Positions 1 through 6,077 are shown, counted from the first letter of the stretch. The stretch: DNA of 6,364 bases from a virus (IMGVR_UViG_2713896780_000023), one strand, 5' to 3'. The notes: generated by a model not told the origin, from the letters alone. Program-made: numbers and translations.

Positions 1-743
1 ATCAGGCTGTCGTAATGCGCGTCATTGTGGATGTGCTGGCGCAGCCAGGCTTCATCGTGGCGATGTTCGATAATGGTATTGGCGATATGGTGACTGGTAC
101 GCATACCGTTAGTGGCCATCACCGACAGTACGGCATCGGCCATCAGGGAAACGCCTACGTGTGGATCGCAAAACACCTGGCTGATACCTGCCAGTTGTCC
201 CTGGACCTTTGCCACATCCAGCGTGGTTCCGCCTAAATCCACAATCAGCAGGGATTCAAACGGACTCATGTCAGCCAGTGCTTTAAAACCAGCCGGAATG
301 GATTCAGGCATAACCCGTACGTTACGGATAGTGAATGCTTTTCCGTTCTGGTACGCCACCGGGCGCATGACGTTTGCTTTTTTGCGGTTGATGTTGGCCA
401 TGTCCGGCTGTGCGTTTGTGTCGAAATATTCGCTCAGTGGCAGGGTGACAACCACATCCACTTCCTGTGGTGTGATGCCTGATTTGACCAGCGCGTGATG
501 AATGGCAATGACATTCACATCGCTGTACTGGTATTGCGTGTCGGTCGTCTGGACAAAGCGATCGCTGACCGGATCAAAACCATAGCGCACGCCATCAAGC
601 ATGTAGTTTGCGGGCTGCGTGCCACCGAACGGCGCAGACCATTCCGACTTGAAGCTGTTCGGGCTGATGGCGTTGCGGCGTTCGCCGTTCTCAGTCCATG
701 CCAGCTTGATGTTGGTGGAGCCGTCGTCGATACAAATTTTCAT
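1..743 (-). CDS. parM: ParM/StbA-like actin-family plasmid segregation ATPase; N-terminal ~247 aa, 3' end runs off the left edge of the window
   Basis: Reverse-strand ATG at 743..741 preceded by AAGGA 8 nt upstream; open to position 1. Translation begins MKICIDDGSTNIKLAWTENGERRNAISPNSFK and contains QYSDVNVIAIHHAL, VMPESIPAGF and LLIVDLGGTTLDV, which match from memory the phosphate-1, connect and phosphate-2 regions of plasmid R1 ParM (FIDDGSTNIKL, SPNSFK, VMPESIPAG, LLIIDLGGTTLD). Not in the supplied ORF track because it has no in-window stop. Confidence 0.8.
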   Translation of the reverse strand, partial: MKICIDDGSTNIKLAWTENGERRNAISPNSFKSEWSAPFGGTQPANYMLDGVRYGFDPVSDRFVQTTDTQYQYSDVNVIAIHHALVKSGITPQEVDVVVTLPLSEYFDTNAQPDMANINRKKANVMRPVAYQNGKAFTIRNVRVMPESIPAGFKALADMSPFESLLIVDLGGTTLDVAKVQGQLAGISQVFCDPHVGVSLMADAVLSVMATNGMRTSHHIANTIIEHRHDEAWLRQHIHNDAHYDSL

Positions 744-774
744 GTCGCTTTTCCTTATGTTGATTAATTAATCG

Positions 775-814
775 TTTACGGGATTCTGAAATCCCGTTTT
801 TGCCTGTTTTGTGT
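775..814. repeat. Direct repeat copy 1 (40 bp) containing the 20-bp palindrome ACGGGATT-CTGA-AATCCCGT (778-797); lies between rep stop and parM start
   Basis: Read directly: TTTACGGGATTCTGAAATCCCGTTTTTGCCTGTTTTGTGT. Matches copy 2 at about 33 of 40 positions; the 8-bp palindrome arms are identical while the 4-nt spacer differs. Confidence 0.7.
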
Positions 815-819
815 GCGCT

Positions 820-3642
820 TCATATATCGCGGCGCGTTTTTTGCTCATTTACGGGATTTGTGAATCCCGTTTCTGTCTGTTTTTTGTTTCCACTGGTCAG
901 GCCACCCCGCAGCAGGTCTGCTTTGCGGCGGGCACGTTCAGTGGTTTCACTGATTCTCTGTGCGTGCTCTGCGTCGCGGATGGCGCGCAGCATGTCAGAA
1001 AGCACGGTAACGGGTGTTTTCATGGTGTTCTGGTCCTGCTGAAGTGTGGATGCCAGACGTGCGGCGGCTTCGGGGTCTGATGCCCCCAGTTGTTCCAGAT
1101 AGCTGGCGACCGGGTTATGGCGGATCTCTGTGCTGCTTACGCCGTGATTACGGCTCAGGCGCTGCCAGAGCTGCGTGATTCGGCTGTCCGGGCGGGTATC
1201 CGGTTTGCGTACAATTTCAAATCCCTGCGGTGCAATGATGCTGCCGTCAACGTACAGGCTGCCGCCCCGTAACAGGTGCTGCATCTGCTGTTCACCGATA
1301 TGCAGGCCGAGAGATTCGGCAGATTCCCGCCATTCTTTAGCGAGTAATTCGTGGTTATCAGGCAAAGGCCGCTGCTGTTTGCGGCTCTGTGTCCAGCTCT
1401 GCATTTCATCACTGCTGTTTTTTGCCTGTTTGTCACGAAGCGAACGCATCAGCGCCCGGCGTTCGTGCCGTTTCAGTGAGTGCATCCATTCGTTCACTTC
1501 AACGCCATCAGGGAGCTGCGGCCACGGTGCTGGCCGTTCTTCCGGCTGTTCTGTCCCGTTGTTGTTCGTTTCCTGTACACGGGGACAGTTATTGCCACGA
1601 GTCCAAGGGGCGGCAGGGCCGCCCTGAAGGTCAAAACCATTTTCGCGGGCGCTGTCTTCCGCTTCCGGTTTACGTCTTACCAGCTTCCAGTTATCCGGGT
1701 GCGTGCACACGCGGGAAGACTCCCCGATGAGCGGCGACCAGATCCCGTAAATCTGTACACTCTGCTCGCCGTAATCGTTCAGCTCATCTGCGAGGTCGTA
1801 GGCGGTGCGAATCAGGTAGTCTTTGCGTGGAACAAGTACGCCACCCTGTTTCTCAATGTAGGTGGCAAAACATCCGGCATCAGCGGCAGCGAGTACCGCG
1901 TCCATTGCGTCATCCTTCAGCCGTTGCGGGCCTTCCGGGTTGCGTGCCATCTGGCTGGCAAGGCGGCGCAGTTCACGCCACACCTGACGGGAGGGGATAC
2001 CAAAGAACTGGAACTGGCGGACCCGGTGAAGGCGCGCCCAGCCGATGGCGCGTTCCACGCTCTCGGCCATTGATTTTCCGGTTTCGTGGTCAACGCGTGG
2101 CTTGCCCGTTTTCGGGTCGATGCCATCCACGGCGCGGCTGTCCAGGTTCTTTCCGATGTAGGTGGCGATGTAGCTGGTTGGTGTGCCTTTTGAGCCGTCG
2201 ACATACTCCACCTTAAAGCGCGGAGTAATATCATTGCCCAGCTCGTGGCGGTCTTCCTGAATGGCAATATCGCGGGTGATGGTCACGATGCTGTCGATTT
2301 CTTCTGGATGAGCAAAGACCATCATGTGCCAGTGCACGGTGCCGTCATGGTGAGGCTCCACCGTGCGGATGCCATACCAGCGCAGGCCGTCGCGGTTCAG
2401 TTTTTTGCGGACCGCCGCAAAAAACGTGTTAACCAGGTAATCGCTGGAGTCGCGCATGGTGGCCCCGTTCCATTTGGGGTTCGGATGACCGTTCTCCGTT
2501 GTTGCGTGGTATTTTGACGGGCAGGTGACAGTCAGAAACACCGCTCTGTCGCCACGGGCTTCGGCCAGAAGTTCCAGTCCCTTCATGGTGGCCATCATTT
2601 CTGCCTTACGGTGAACCGGGTTACTTACTCCCGCGTAATACACCGTCTCGAGATCAATCGTGAACCCGTCTTCATTTTCCAGCATGAAACTTTTCAGGAA
2701 ATCGCGTGTTTTCTCGCGCTGTGCGCGAAACTCGCTTAACGCGTCCTGGCTCAGATAGGGTGATGTTTTTCTGGAAACCAGACAGGCGGCGCGGAGTTGT
2801 TCTTCTCTCCACTCGCAACGTAACAGCCACAGTTTGCGTTTCCACCATTCCGCACAGGTCAGGCGAAGGATTGCGCCCGGCAGCAGCTCCGTGTCCGGTT
2901 CGTTCCTCCGGTCTTTGTCTGTTGTCAGTGCGTCATAATGTGGAGGCATGGCGTGCAGGTGTAACGCCATGCGGGCCAGCATCTGATACGCCTTCAGCGT
3001 TACATCCATGGTCAGTTCGCCATCAGTCGCGCCAAAGCCATCGCAGAGTTTTTCGAAGGTGCTGCTGAACATCGCCGCCGTCATGGTGGCCAGCGTCTGT
3101 ATCTGGTGTTTGTTGAGCTGCGGCAGGTAAAGCAAATCGTCCAGGCGTTCGCGTCCGGCAAGAGAGCGATAACCCGGTGTCAGCCAGCGGCTGTCGGTGC
3201 GGTCCAGACGTTCGAATATTTTGCGCAGGGTTCCGCGTGCATAGCGTTCCGCCTGCCAGCTCTTTTTGCCTTTCCGGCGATCGGCTTCCTGTTTTTTGCG
3301 CAGGAAGGAGAGGTGGCGAATAAGCGGATCGCGCAGATAGGACGGCAGCAGGCGCAGCGAGGTCATGGCTTCATCCACTGCGCCGCGTGCCTGTTTTCTG
3401 GCGTCTCCTGCCAGTGTGATGGTTTTGTCCTGTTTTTCCTGTGCGTCCAGGCTTTTATTAATCAGGTTGCCCAGCGGCGTGGCGGAGAACGCCGCATCAG
3501 CCATTTCCTGGCGGCGCTCGTTCTCTACCCGGTAGGCATCCAGCCAGGAGGAAAGCGCGGATTCAGGAGCGGGGATCCCCGTTCCTTCACGCCCCACTGC
3601 GTGGCGCGGTTGTTGCCAGTCCCTGATGTACTCTGCCGTCAT
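820..3642 (-). CDS. Rolling-circle replication initiator, HUH endonuclease of the P2 gpA / phiX174 A type (940 aa as drawn), with N- and C-terminal extensions
   Basis: Longest ORF in the window. Motif 1 FLTVT (aa 369-373, about 2524-2538); HUH motif V-H-W-H-M-M-V-F (H437-W438-H439, nt 2326-2334, checked as CAC TGG CAC on the reverse strand); motif 3 S-Y-I-A-T-Y-I-G-K-N-L-D with Y491 (2170-2172) and Y495 (2158-2160), matching the Y-x-x-x-Y-x-x-K pattern of phiX174 A and P2 gpA. ATG at 3642 lies 6 nt after the stop of the upstream ORF with only a weak SD, so coupling or a different start is possible. Confidence 0.75.
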   Translation of the reverse strand: MTAEYIRDWQQPRHAVGREGTGIPAPESALSSWLDAYRVENERRQEMADAAFSATPLGNLINKSLDAQEKQDKTITLAGDARKQARGAVDEAMTSLRLLPSYLRDPLIRHLSFLRKKQEADRRKGKKSWQAERYARGTLRKIFERLDRTDSRWLTPGYRSLAGRERLDDLLYLPQLNKHQIQTLATMTAAMFSSTFEKLCDGFGATDGELTMDVTLKAYQMLARMALHLHAMPPHYDALTTDKDRRNEPDTELLPGAILRLTCAEWWKRKLWLLRCEWREEQLRAACLVSRKTSPYLSQDALSEFRAQREKTRDFLKSFMLENEDGFTIDLETVYYAGVSNPVHRKAEMMATMKGLELLAEARGDRAVFLTVTCPSKYHATTENGHPNPKWNGATMRDSSDYLVNTFFAAVRKKLNRDGLRWYGIRTVEPHHDGTVHWHMMVFAHPEEIDSIVTITRDIAIQEDRHELGNDITPRFKVEYVDGSKGTPTSYIATYIGKNLDSRAVDGIDPKTGKPRVDHETGKSMAESVERAIGWARLHRVRQFQFFGIPSRQVWRELRRLASQMARNPEGPQRLKDDAMDAVLAAADAGCFATYIEKQGGVLVPRKDYLIRTAYDLADELNDYGEQSVQIYGIWSPLIGESSRVCTHPDNWKLVRRKPEAEDSARENGFDLQGGPAAPWTRGNNCPRVQETNNNGTEQPEERPAPWPQLPDGVEVNEWMHSLKRHERRALMRSLRDKQAKNSSDEMQSWTQSRKQQRPLPDNHELLAKEWRESAESLGLHIGEQQMQHLLRGGSLYVDGSIIAPQGFEIVRKPDTRPDSRITQLWQRLSRNHGVSSTEIRHNPVASYLEQLGASDPEAAARLASTLQQDQNTMKTPVTVLSDMLRAIRDAEHAQRISETTERARRKADLLRGGLTSGNKKQTETGFTNPVNEQKTRRDI
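848..887. repeat. Direct repeat copy 2 (40 bp) containing the palindrome ACGGGATT-TGTG-AATCCCGT (851-870); lies inside the last ~22 codons of the rep CDS
   Basis: Read directly: TTTACGGGATTTGTGAATCCCGTTTCTGTCTGTTTTTTGT; start-to-start spacing from copy 1 is 73 bp. Confidence 0.7.
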
Positions 3643-3648
3643 AGTGAT

Positions 3649-4014
3649 TTACTTCGTCATGCCATTCAGGGTGTCGCGGCAGACTGTAGCCAGCCGCTGA
3701 ATTTCCAGCACGGTGTCTTCTGTGTCGGCATGGCGATGTGTGATGCGGATGCTGTCGGCAATCACATCGACGATTGCAGAGGATGGGCGCTGGTAAATGC
3801 CAATAACGGACGGGGTGCCACCTTCAATGCGGGAAAGCCTGTAATTTCCCTCGTGGCTGTCAATCATGTAGCGACCATCAATAACAATCTTTCCGTCAGC
3901 GAGCTGCGGTACAGGCAGGGATTTCAGGTACATGTCATAACGATCACGCACGCGAGCGGCAAGATCACGCTCTGTGTTGAGCAGGTATTCAAGAAAGTCG
4001 TTGGCGAGAATCAT
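3649..4014 (-). CDS. Hypothetical protein, 121 aa, no recognised family; may extend to ATG 4203 (184 aa) through the masked block
   Basis: ATG at 4014..4012 preceded by AAGAGGA 8-9 nt upstream; TAA stop at 3651..3649, 6 nt before the rep ATG. The ORF track joins it in-frame to an ATG at 4203 across the 50-nt N run, but that continuity cannot be verified. Confidence 0.5.
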   Translation of the reverse strand: MILANDFLEYLLNTERDLAARVRDRYDMYLKSLPVPQLADGKIVIDGRYMIDSHEGNYRLSRIEGGTPSVIGIYQRPSSAIVDVIADSIRITHRHADTEDTVLEIQRLATVCRDTLNGMTK

Positions 4015-4083
4015 TGCGGCAATCCTCTTGTTACAGATGTGCGAAGGCCTCCCGCCGCAAGGTGCAGGAAAGGCCCGGAACAG

Positions 4084-4133
4084 NNNNNNNNNNNNNNNNN
4101 NNNNNNNNNNNNNNNNNNNNNNNNNNNNNNNNN
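4084..4133. other. N-masked block (50 nt), sequence unknown
   Basis: Run of n characters in the input. Confidence 1.
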
Positions 4134-4203
4134 GTCTGCGGTTGATTTCAGTCTGGATGTGACGACGCTCCGCGATAGCGCGGTGCTGTTTGCGGTCTGC
4201 CAT

Positions 4204-4358
4204 GGTGTGGCCTCTTTGCTCGGTGATAGAAATAACTCACCATCCAGAGTTGAGAATCTCGGGGTGGCGAGACGTACAGGGTTCTCAACACCGGAGAGCA
4301 AAGAATCCGGCCCGACCGAAGTCGGCCCCGTACGCCCCGCCATAATTCTGACGCGAAA
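4204..4358 (-). ncRNA. Candidate structured leader / small RNA region (minus-strand sense) between the two masked blocks
   Basis: Minus-strand hairpins read directly. (a) GGCCGAC-UUCG-GUCGG(G)CC at about 4311-4329, a GC-rich stem closed by a cUUCGg tetraloop. (b) Nested stem GUUGAGAA / UUCUCAAC (4248-4255 with 4281-4288) enclosing inner stem UCUCG-CCACCC-CGAGA (4256-4271). (c) GGUGA-N10-UCACC at about 4221-4240. (d) CCGGA-N10-UCCGG at about 4290-4309. No ORF with a complete, verifiable reading frame lies in this stretch. Boundaries are unknown because both ends are masked. Confidence 0.25.
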
Positions 4359-4409
4359 NNNNNNNNNNNNNNNNNNNNNNNNNNNNNNNNNNNNNNNNNN
4401 NNNNNNNNN
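4359..4409. other. N-masked block (51 nt), sequence unknown
   Basis: Run of n characters in the input. Confidence 1.
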
Positions 4410-4434
4410 TTTTGTGTGTGCATGTTCTGGTTTC

Positions 4435-4734
4435 TTACTGGTTCAGAAAAAAATCAAAAACGTTATCGATGCGTTGCAGCAGCTCTTGCTGCATTGCTTC
4501 CGGCGTTTCCGGTTCGCCAGGTGCCCCCAGCGTTGCGCAGAAATCAGCGATTTCATGATGGAGCGTGAGGCGAATGGCTGGAGCAGTGGTTCTGGCGTGC
4601 TCCAGCTGATCCAGCAGTGCCAGCACAGCAGACGGCGAGAGCATTGCGCGAAATGCCAGTAATTTTTGAGGCGTTGCCATTCGTTGCAGGGCAAATGCCA
4701 GTTCGCGTAGCTTCTGGTGGTTGATGGTGCTCAT
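4435..4734 (-). CDS. Hypothetical protein, 99 aa, no recognised family
   Basis: ATG at 4734..4732 overlaps the TGA stop of the upstream ORF (ATGA junction); AAGGAAG 7 nt upstream; TAA stop at 4437..4435. Protein looks acidic and helical. Confidence 0.55.
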   Translation of the reverse strand: MSTINHQKLRELAFALQRMATPQKLLAFRAMLSPSAVLALLDQLEHARTTAPAIRLTLHHEIADFCATLGAPGEPETPEAMQQELLQRIDNVFDFFLNQ

Positions 4735-4997
4735 GCTCTGGCTTCCTTCAGTAGCTGGTTAAACATGTGAGTAAGTGGATTACTACACCCGAACAGCATC
4801 GGGTTTACGTGGTAAGAAGCCTGGCCTCCTGTTTTGCGAGCGCGACCACCTGTGCTGCGGTTTGTTCTGATGACTAAGCCGCCGCGCCAAAGTCGGCGTA
4901 ACTCAGCATTAATGGCTGTGGTTGGGGTATTCAGTGCTGCGGCGATCTCTCCGCCGCTACACCCCGGATGAGTAGCGATGTAGTCCAGAATGGTCAT
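4731..4997 (-). CDS. Hypothetical protein, 88 aa, possible winged-helix DNA-binding fold
   Basis: ATG at 4997..4995 overlaps the TGA stop of the upstream ORF (ATGA junction); AGGAG 9 nt upstream. N-terminal ILDYIATHPGCSGGEIAAALNTPTTAINAELRRLWRGGLV resembles a helix-turn-helix plus wing arrangement by eye; inference only. Confidence 0.5.
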   Translation of the reverse strand: MTILDYIATHPGCSGGEIAAALNTPTTAINAELRRLWRGGLVIRTNRSTGGRARKTGGQASYHVNPMLFGCSNPLTHMFNQLLKEARA

Positions 4998-5197
4998 CTG
5001 CGTGGCTCCTGTACCTGTCGGATAAGATTCACCCGCGCCACGTTGGTGGCGCAGAAGTAAGTGCCGTCAGTGAGGTAGATGTGGTGTGCATCCTTTTCCG
5101 AACGATGTTTGTCGATAGTGGTAATCAGGCGTTCGTCGACCTCGTATTCGCGCCCTCTGGAGGTAAAGCGAACGACGGGAAAATGCTTAATTGCCAT
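4994..5197 (-). CDS. Hypothetical protein, 67 aa, no recognised family
   Basis: ATG at 5197..5195 with AGGGGG 5-6 nt upstream; TGA stop overlapping the next ATG. Confidence 0.5.
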   Translation of the reverse strand: MAIKHFPVVRFTSRGREYEVDERLITTIDKHRSEKDAHHIYLTDGTYFCATNVARVNLIRQVQEPRR

Positions 5198-5220
5198 TGC
5201 GCCCCCTTTGTCCAGTAACC

Positions 5221-5631
5221 CTATGCGTTAAATACGGCACATTGCGCGTCATCAATGAATACAACTTGAGAGCGTTCTATCAGGCGGAGATTTGTCAGAA
5301 TTTCTGATTCCCTTATGGGGTGAGGAGTGATCAGGTATTTATCCTGTAATCCGGCGATAATGGTGTATCGCTGTAGCTCCGAGCCAATTGTGTAAATAAG
5401 GCGTCCGGTGTTAGACAAATCCAGTCCGGTGACTGGTTGTGTTCTGAGAACCGCCAGTTCAGCATCCTGTTTTGCGATAATTTCGGCTGCTTCTGCCGTG
5501 ACTCTTGCGACTATCAGTGTGTGGGTTGCGACGTCCATATGTGCATTTGCCACGGCTTTTTTCGCTACTTCGTTTTCTGTCTTTGAAATTTCTTTCAGTG
5601 CTCTGATGATACCTTCTTCTTTTGCGTGCAT
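5221..5631 (-). CDS. Hypothetical protein, 136 aa, no recognised family
   Basis: ATG at 5631..5629 with GGAG 8 nt upstream; TAG stop at 5223..5221. First gene after the 93-nt AT-rich gap 5632-5724. Confidence 0.55.
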   Translation of the reverse strand: MHAKEEGIIRALKEISKTENEVAKKAVANAHMDVATHTLIVARVTAEAAEIIAKQDAELAVLRTQPVTGLDLSNTGRLIYTIGSELQRYTIIAGLQDKYLITPHPIRESEILTNLRLIERSQVVFIDDAQCAVFNA

Positions 5632-5724
5632 TTTTGTATCTCCGTTATTTGCGTGTGCGAATACCTCCGTTAATACGGATGGTTTTCACGTTTTCTTATT
5701 TAATTTGATGCTTTATTTGTATCG

Positions 5725-5838
5725 TTATTCACCAGTGAAAAAGCGTTCAATCTTTTTTACTGAATGAATAATTCGCATAATCCCAATGGCGCAGGCCACA
5801 GAAATAATCAGAACAAGCCATGAGATAAATATACTCAT
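5725..5838 (-). CDS. Small hydrophobic peptide, 37 aa (MSIFISWLVLIISVACAIGIMRIIHSVKKIERFFTGE), one predicted transmembrane helix with a basic C-terminal tail; not in the supplied ORF track
   Basis: Hand translation of the minus strand. ATG at 5838..5836 overlaps the TGA stop (5837..5835) of the 80-aa ORF (ATGA junction); GGGGA 8 nt upstream; TAA stop at 5727..5725. Confidence 0.4.
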   Translation of the reverse strand: MSIFISWLVLIISVACAIGIMRIIHSVKKIERFFTGE

Positions 5839-6077
5839 GCGATATTCCCCAGCTTATACGGTTCAATATGTTCCCCGCATTCTGCGGCACAGATTAGCTC
5901 GGAAAGTTCGTTAAGTGCATCCAGATCATCAGCGTAAAAAGCCACGTCATACAGACTCCGGATTGCCCTGGTCAATGAGTCACGGGCTGCACGTTCAGCA
6001 TGAGCGCCTGATGCACTTAAGCGAAAATAAAAACGCTCAAGTGCTTTGTTGATGAGTGTTTTATATTCTTTGTCCAT
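5835..6077 (-). CDS. Hypothetical protein, 80 aa, no recognised family
   Basis: ATG at 6077..6075 with AAGGG 8 nt upstream; TGA stop at 5837..5835 overlapping the peptide ATG. Confidence 0.5.
   Translation of the reverse strand: MDKEYKTLINKALERFYFRLSASGAHAERAARDSLTRAIRSLYDVAFYADDLDALNELSELICAAECGEHIEPYKLGNIA

Follow-up and report, generated by a model that had tools for sequence, protein, structure and literature searches.

A ParM-type partition cassette beside the gpA replication initiator of P88-like prophages of Escherichia coli, with a candidate two-site centromere

The viral sequence IMGVR_UViG_2713896780_000023, a stretch of 6,364 nucleotides that was analysed as a whole (the window), comes from a temperate prophage of Escherichia coli, integrated and P88-like (Xuanwuvirus, P2 family), and represents the last part of its early operon. 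In it the gene of a gpA-family rolling-circle replication initiator is followed by parM, the first gene of a type II partition cassette. In the relatives of the window this parM-parR cassette is complete, intact and under strong purifying selection, and it occupies the same position in the prophages of several enterobacterial genera. Its presence raises the question of the role of ParMRC in an integrating phage; we consider it somewhat better than an even bet, judging from the features described below, that the cassette serves to segregate extrachromosomal phage circles. All real genes of the window lie on the minus strand, and the features of the replication and partition region, together with parR as it stands in the relative L002, are the following:

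1-743, minus strand: parM, type II partition actin-like ATPase, first 247 of 319 codons, the rest lying beyond the window edge (StbA_N and ParM C-domain)
760-768, minus strand: ATTAATCAA, -10-like element of a putative par promoter (sequence comparison)
772-813, no strand assigned: proximal 42-nt repeat copy, putative parC site 2/operator, with a palindrome at 778-797 (repeat search)
845-886, no strand assigned: distal 42-nt direct-repeat copy, putative parC site 1, with a palindrome at 851-870 (repeat search)
820-3642, minus strand: gpA-family rolling-circle replication initiator ('replication endonuclease'), 940 aa (Pfam Phage_GPA, annotation of relatives)
2149-2172, minus strand: two-tyrosine catalytic motif YIATYIGK, gpA residues 491-498 (regular expression on the translation)
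2317-2334, minus strand: HUH metal-binding motif HWHMMV, gpA residues 437-442 (regular expression on the translation)
19468-19779 of L002, minus strand: parR (Plasmid_stab_B)

The start codon of parM is the ATG at 743..741, separated by a gap of 76 bp from the end of gpA, and its open reading frame (ORF) extends past the left edge of the window, so that 247 residues are visible. These residues match StbA_N with E=3.6e-82 and, with E=1.1e-37, the ParM C-terminal domain, and the phosphate-binding/catalytic motifs DDGSTNIK, MPES and DLGGTTLD are all present. The full-length ParM of relatives (319 aa) aligns end to end with ParM of plasmid R1 (PDB 1mwk), with E=2e-92 and about 50% identity. An earlier, sequence-only reading of this DNA had allowed that the ParM-like frame might be a truncated pseudogene remnant. 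This can be ruled out: the gene is cut by the window edge only, and in a set of 88 loci drawn from IMG/VR, GTDB and GenBank it is an intact 319-aa ORF in 87. The single locus with a premature stop, after codon 182, is L055 (IMGVR_UViG_2531839180_000004). Over 72 alleles the mean pairwise ratio of nonsynonymous to synonymous substitution rates (dN/dS) of parM was 0.060, below the values obtained for gpA (0.141) and parR (0.30). The initiator gene is thus under weaker purifying selection than parM, a result that is new here.

In relatives, parR is a 103-aa ORF that begins 4 nt past parM, outside the window, and matches the Pfam family Plasmid_stab_B (the ParR/StbB family) with E=1.6e-25. Across the 88 loci it is present wherever the contig reaches far enough. 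The N-terminal strand of the protein, TRRISFYLKP, is invariant and its C-terminal NI(R/Q)ALFPE is conserved; it also has a hypervariable linker (residues ~65-95) and falls into two diverged allele groups, next to a ParM that is almost invariant. A sequence search of the PDB with ParR returned chance matches only. With a ParM whose nucleotide-binding motifs are intact and a parR directly downstream, the cassette has by its sequence both protein components of a type II partition system.

The initiator upstream is, as predicted from its domain and motifs, an HUH rolling-circle initiator that belongs to the phage itself. Its match to Pfam PF05840 (Phage_GPA) has E=1.8e-130 and 435 bits (cut-off 31.4), residues 179-503 covering model positions 1-321 of 321. 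The HUH motif is the defining mark of HUH Rep proteins, and YxxxYxxK is the pattern of the phiX174 A / P2 A type. Identity is about 30% with the product of P2 gene A (residues 89-800) and 43% with gpA of Klebsiella Gegavirus, and 'replication endonuclease' is the annotation of gpA both in the relative H1 and in P88. A PDB sequence search found no solved structure of a relative of gpA. While dN/dS is 0.10 in the catalytic domain, it rises to 0.26 in the last 140 codons, and this tail (residues 801-940) is lineage-specific and under weaker constraint.

The identity of the element is clear from its relatives. Over its whole length the window is 98.8% identical in nucleotide sequence to chromosomal prophages of E. 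coli O145. Escherichia phage P88 (NC_026014) matches it at 94.5% identity over 91% of the window, and P88 and other Xuanwuvirus (Peduoviridae, P2-like) phages together span 94.5-96.4% identity. When the P88-like prophages of E. coli and Citrobacter rodentium phiSM are included, the range is 94.5-98.8% over 91-98% of the window. Annotated relatives carry an integrase, a C repressor with Cox, and an early operon in which 'replication endonuclease' comes last; after it follow 'plasmid segregation protein ParM', a 103-aa 'plasmid partitioning/stability family protein', some small genes that vary, and then the portal, terminase, capsid, lysis and tail genes. High identity and synteny with P88, including the integrase, the C/Cox switch and the P2-type virion genes in the flanks, assign the element to Xuanwuvirus. 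An examination of flanks for an integrase as opposed to a plasmid backbone, proposed in the sequence-only reading, thus comes out on the side of the integrase, with a full P2-type virion module in the relatives. Gene order is that of the P88-like group (DUF4754, MarR-like, Ead-like, derepression protein, gpA, ParM, ParR, portal). The window shows no essential difference from these phages and is one more allele, whose accessory genes at 4400-5700 are of the O145-type variant and not of the P88 type.

Such elements are common. Of 5,426 complete E. coli genomes, about 1,130 contain at least 80% of the window, nearly always in the chromosome; gpA of the Xuanwu type was found in 1,444 of these genomes and parMR in 1,307 (about 24%). 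Among the 50,697 phage records of INPHARED, ParM of this type occurs in 14 Xuanwuvirus records and in D6 only. The sequence-only reading had named both proteins correctly, and the two genes are indeed adjacent and co-oriented, on a strand that it had not given; the recurrence of the pairing, which it had proposed to check, is borne out by the E. coli genomes and the Xuanwuvirus records. It had also called the pairing unusual, which does not hold for this phage group. The pairing is already known, being annotated in public records and remarked on in print in 2022: Rousset et al. 2022 (PMC9122126) described the stretch between gpA and gpQ in the P2-like prophages of E. coli as a hotspot of diversity and defence, noted a putative partition system between gpA and gpQ in about one quarter of the P2-like phages from E. 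coli, and offered the idea of a plasmid-prophage as speculation. The papers on P88 and phiSM list the gene and never analyse it, and 'Bacterial genome-encoded ParMs' (JBC 2025) does not mention phages.

The site of the cassette is this gpA-portal (gpA–gpQ) accessory hotspot of P2-like phages, and within it the position of parMR is constant. In nearly every one of the 88 loci with enough upstream sequence the gpA stop lies 76 nt before the parM start (75-77 in a few). The genes between parR and portal, in contrast, vary among relatives (L002 17240-19404, minus strand; downstream of parR in L094, L095 and L098) and include those for a ClpX zinc-finger protein, an XF1762/Mom-like protein, HicAB, a KAP NTPase and Ogr. 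The cassette thus sits in exactly the slot of the tin/old locus (PMC9122126), but it differs from typical hotspot cargo, which begins only past parR, in being fixed at the gpA-proximal end and in matching no defence model.

ParM homologues that are 53-62% identical, from Serratia, Hafnia, Plesiomonas and Enterobacter, all stand in P2-like prophages in the order gpA, parM, parR and, further on, portal; the recurrence of this layout in prophages of the four genera is new here. Homologues at 49-52% identity are found on plasmids, an integrative and conjugative element (ICE) or an integrated plasmid. A neighbour-joining bootstrap recovered the P88/Hafnia/Plesiomonas ParM group as monophyletic in 200 of 200 replicates. 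A single clade of all phage-borne ParMs was recovered in 78 of 200 only and was not retained.

In the IMG/VR locus L070 the cassette is preceded by a P2-type gpA (31% identical, 773 aa) and an extra ORF, and homology to the P88 type begins just upstream of the distal repeat (L070 5840-5924); the portable unit therefore consists of repeat 1, repeat 2, parM and parR. The reading frame of Xuanwuvirus gpA continues into repeat 1, while in L070 the same sequence sits downstream of the unrelated P2-type gpA and the extra ORF. The partition cassette is an accessory module, portable in itself, which has come to be fixed beside gpA. The proviso in the sequence-only reading that the two genes might belong to separately inserted elements is right as far as portability goes, as L070 demonstrates, yet the cassette lies within the same phage genome as gpA. 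A scan of GTDB representatives for the cassette gave three loci only, one of them in a 'Vagococcus' assembly (L011, NZ_JBQPOM010000071.1, 'Vagococcus sp. WN89Y'). There the cassette lies on a 226-kb contig of a Firmicute assembly, with a ParM 97% identical to that of the E. coli P88 type, and is probably enterobacterial contamination. Another locus, L007 (E. coli O157:H7 MB9-1, NZ_CP040107.1, 3206-8418), is a decayed P2-like prophage with an IS3 element abutting parR and with its head genes missing; its gpA, parM and parR ORFs are all still intact.

Upstream of parM, the two copies of the 42-nt repeat are 73 bp apart and each holds a 20-bp palindrome, ACGGGATT-N4-AATCCCGT, which in 46.5 kb has two matches only (0.16 expected), both just upstream of parM. 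The distal repeat falls within the last ~22 codons of gpA (window 820-886, minus strand). Its core, YGGG-N10-CCCR, a pattern with a background rate of 1 per 5.6 kb, is found at -126 from the parM ATG in 82 of the 86 loci with enough upstream sequence, three of these 82 having it at -125; in Hafnia it stands at -129 and in Plesiomonas at -132. The proximal core is at -53 from the ATG in the P88 type, -56 in Hafnia and -60 in Plesiomonas, which gives dyad spacings of 73, 73 and 72 bp, respectively. The half-sites, the N10 spacer, the spacing of 72-73 bp and the distance to the ATG are thus kept in all three types, whereas the inner bases are not. These two dyads likely form a minimal centromere/operator, to go by their conserved geometry, and this proposal is new here.

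The element ATTAATCAA is identical in the P88-type, Hafnia and Plesiomonas cassettes and lies 10-13 nt past the proximal dyad. A consensus promoter scan reported no sigma-70 site upstream of parM and did not call ATTAATCAA; any promoter here would therefore be weak, possibly repressible by ParR and with ATTAATCAA as its -10. Since no terminator-like site was detected on the sense strand of the gpA-parM interval, co-transcription with the early (replication) operon is possible.

How such a cassette could work can be proposed from these elements. ParR would bind both YGGG-N10-CCCR dyads, which, being 73 bp or about seven helical turns apart, would lie on the same face of the helix, and would so make up the minimal centromere/operator, the proximal dyad overlapping the -35 region of the weak par promoter. 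As in plasmid R1, ParM-ATP filaments captured or capped by ParR-parC would then drive the sister phage circles apart. The products of P2-type replication are monomer circles. What is segregated would be the phage genome in its extrachromosomal circular form, as gpA multiplies it once infection or excision has taken place, and the cassette could be expressed together with the replication operon. The gain would be a copy kept in both daughter cells, or a proper positioning of the replicating genomes, before integration or lysis. The sequence-only reading had alternatively proposed a chromosomal island that replicates episomally after excision. The element is instead a known P88-type prophage, but partition of an excised, replicating form is still the best guess at function. 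A more specific version, in which phages of the P88, Hafnia and Plesiomonas types possess a phage-adapted ParMRC with a two-dyad centromere that actively segregates gpA-made monomeric circles, and so have a facultative plasmid-like or carrier phase or a partition-assisted lysogeny, can be put forward tentatively, and we think it rather doubtful as a whole.

Several points weigh against the segregation of phage circles. In P2, gpA is cis-acting and expression of the early genes normally ends in lysis, so that any plasmid-like phase is restricted, and there is no cell division during a lytic burst, so the benefit of segregation is not obvious. The hotspot that holds the cassette is mostly occupied by defence or other accessory genes. 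The putative parC consists of two dyads, as against the approximately ten 11-bp iterons of R1-type plasmids (seen in pTW11681), and in about one quarter of the P88-type loci the proximal dyad is the degenerate variant GCGGGATTTAAAAATCCTGT. A comparison meant as a test of binding showed no covariation of ParR allele group with dyad variant; both variants occur with both ParR groups, so that it says little on this point. On the opposite (plus) strand both palindromes resemble intrinsic terminators. The cassettes of Serratia and Enterobacter have a different repeat layout upstream: at L094 7880-7980 a long-range inverted repeat ((C/T)GGGAAC…AGAAAAAT / ATTTTTCT…) replaces the two short dyads, and L098 7880-7955 has the same type of inverted repeat, the matching GTTCCCA end being seen in L098 only, which suggests a second type of centromere. 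Finally, our literature search found no functional study of a P2-like ParMRC, Rousset et al. 2022 (PMC9122126) going no further than speculation.

Other explanations were weighed against the same data. The gpA and ParMRC core could provide stable persistence as a low-copy plasmid, which would make these elements true phage-plasmids, and the sequence-only reading had likewise suggested a phage-plasmid or a plasmid-like episome. The completeness and constraint of the cassette agree with this, as does the occurrence of a related ParM in just one further phage of INPHARED, the phage-plasmid D6 (47.8% identity); a complete circular P88-like genome of 34,461 bp with an integrase is filed as a plasmid in PLSDB (L003, NZ_CP148288.1), and the idea has been raised in print (Rousset 2022, PMC9122126). 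However, parMR is chromosomal at 1,453 of its 1,455 places in the complete E. coli genomes, an integrase and the C/Cox switch were present in each element examined, and no plasmid-type replicon is present. Expression of gpA, moreover, is part of the lytic early operon of P2. The remaining PLSDB matches are very large replicons or the 129-kb plasmid pCREC455-3 (L093), which was considered as a concatemer and rejected, as it holds a single integrated copy. Besides the one clean par carrier of 34,461 bp, PLSDB contains several phage-size circular P2-like records without this ParM, so that such circular records are not specific to par carriers, and NZ_CP148288.1 may be an excised circle captured by assembly. 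The element is an integrative P2-like phage, and persistence as a plasmid is unlikely to be what the cassette is for. An explanation that we find quite unlikely is that the cassette is hotspot cargo acting on other elements, whether through partition-type incompatibility with plasmids or related superinfecting phages, through their exclusion, or in a defence-like role. Its slot is a documented anti-phage hotspot (tin, old and retrons, for example; PMC9122126) which in sister genera holds DinI, SEFIR, HicAB and KAP NTPase genes, and the cassette has moved between gpA lineages. The -10-like element with its overlapping dyad points to an autoregulated promoter belonging to the cassette itself, which might work in the lysogen, and the ParR allele groups are diverged, with a hypervariable linker. 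On the other hand, despite the location in the hotspot, a defence function was rejected because no PADLOC model matches ParM, ParR, gpA or five downstream proteins (E<=0.01). Cross-reaction with resident plasmids is also unlikely, since no plasmid ParM in PLSDB exceeds 52% identity with the phage ParM and the upstream repeats are unlike R1-type iterons. All alleles share the DNA-reading strand of ParR, TRRISFYLKP, as well as the dyad half-sites, and we therefore see no sign of a diversifying incompatibility specificity. Nor do the variable genes further downstream share the fixed place that parMR keeps beside gpA across genera.

The palindromes themselves might be intrinsic terminators or RNA hairpins that halt antisense read-through of the late P-Q operon, with parC elsewhere or absent. 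Both were flagged as terminator-like on the plus strand, with an 8-bp stem, a 4-nt loop and a T-rich tail; the predicted hairpins are of about -10 to -11 kcal/mol on either strand, and the common changes in the proximal variant preserve G·U pairing on the sense strand. Plesiomonas and Hafnia, however, keep only the outer YGGG/CCCR half-sites, the N10 spacer, the spacing of 72-73 bp and the position relative to the ATG. Their inner bases are not self-complementary, leaving a stem of 3-4 bp with a 10-nt loop and about -5 to -7 kcal/mol at three of the four sites. Given inner bases that are neither conserved nor self-complementary and hairpins this weak, a protein-binding dyad fits better than an RNA stem. 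Besides, read-through of the late operon can already be halted by a stronger hairpin placed directly past the portal gene, and we hold the terminator explanation to be decidedly unlikely. That the cassette is a non-functional hitch-hiker, a decaying plasmid remnant which came to lie beside gpA by chance, is hardly credible. The premature parM stop in L055 and the persistence of the cassette in decayed prophages such as the O157:H7 remnant could be read in its favour, but this explanation is strongly disfavoured by the selection analysis, parM having a lower dN/dS (0.06) than the essential gpA, and the ORF is intact in all but one of the 88 loci, with its nucleotide-binding motifs all retained and the arrangement kept across genera down to 53% ParM identity.

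Among known partition systems, ParMRC of R1 and stbAB of NR1 share with the phage cassette a full-length ParM of about 50% identity, a ParR of the Plasmid_stab_B family and the order repeats, parM, parR. They differ in that the phage cassette is found on an integrative phage and not on a plasmid. R1 has about ten 11-bp direct iterons flanking its promoter in place of two dyads 73 bp apart, and the phage ParR is shorter (103-104 aa), with its hypervariable linker. The best functional analogy is probably offered by srpMRC of the SXT/R391 ICEs (Carraro et al. 2015, PMC4489591). There too an integrated element has a type II locus and an excised circle that is multiplied by a rolling-circle-type initiator, the relaxase TraI in SXT/R391 and gpA in the phage; srpMRC and the rolling-circle replication driven by TraI stabilise excised R391 (PMC4489591). 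SrpM, however, is distant from R1 ParM, of which the phage ParM is a close relative, its host is an ICE and not a virus, and stabilisation has been proven experimentally for srpMRC, while for the phage cassette it is a proposal. The AlpC/AlpA/alpS system of prophage CGP3 of Corynebacterium glutamicum (Donovan et al. 2015, PMC4446434) likewise combines an integrated prophage with an actin-like ATPase and a DNA adaptor. The adaptor attaches to repeats of its own promoter region, induction of the genes comes early once excision has occurred, and AlpAC is required for efficient replication of circular CGP3 DNA (PMC4446434). AlpC differs in being a distant actin-like protein, without sequence relationship to R1-type ParM, of an actinobacterial siphophage-like element, and gene order and adaptor family differ as well. 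StbA/StbB of the P1-like phage-plasmid D6 includes the ParM of this type mentioned above, and its GenBank note reads 'similar to phage P88 StbA'. D6, though, is a 91-kb extrachromosomal plasmid prophage with several short TCTCA-type iterons upstream, and it falls outside the P88/Hafnia/Plesiomonas clade.

A partition locus that is carried by almost a quarter of complete E. coli genomes is under stronger constraint than the phage's own initiator. If the cassette segregates or positions excised or incoming circles, the precedents of srpMRC in an ICE and AlpAC in CGP3 would be extended to the large P2 family, the boundary between integrative phages and phage-plasmids would be blurred, and a naturally minimal two-site ParR centromere would be at hand for mechanistic work. 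Were the more specific version true, in which a phage-adapted ParMRC segregates the gpA-made circles, about one fifth of E. coli strains would harbour a chromosomally parked, virus-owned, actin-like machine for DNA segregation.

The rest of the early region, upstream of gpA, contains these further features:

4260-4347, minus strand: C4 antisense RNA, full-length (Rfam RF01695; 78.5 bits against a gathering score of 45)
4435-4734, minus strand: weak Ead/Ea22-like ORF
4731-4997, minus strand: MarR-type winged-helix protein (MarR_2, 2e-07)
5835-6077, minus strand: DUF4754 protein (2e-54)

A 518-aa ORF on the plus strand (3106-4662), running antisense through the 5' end of gpA and across two runs of N in the sequence, was rejected as an artefact. 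These runs, at 4084-4133 and 4359-4409, are both shorter than the sequence that they replace (L002 24085-24247 and 24473-24614). In a 98.8%-identical relative, most of the derepression-protein gene lies in the part that the first run replaces, and an isrK-like small RNA (RF01394, 58.4 bits, L002 24497-24571, minus strand) in the part replaced by the second. The C4 antisense RNA lies upstream of a 76-aa gene of the 'Derepression' family (PF25738), an arrangement that resembles the immI-like c4/antirepressor module of P1, here in a P2-like phage.

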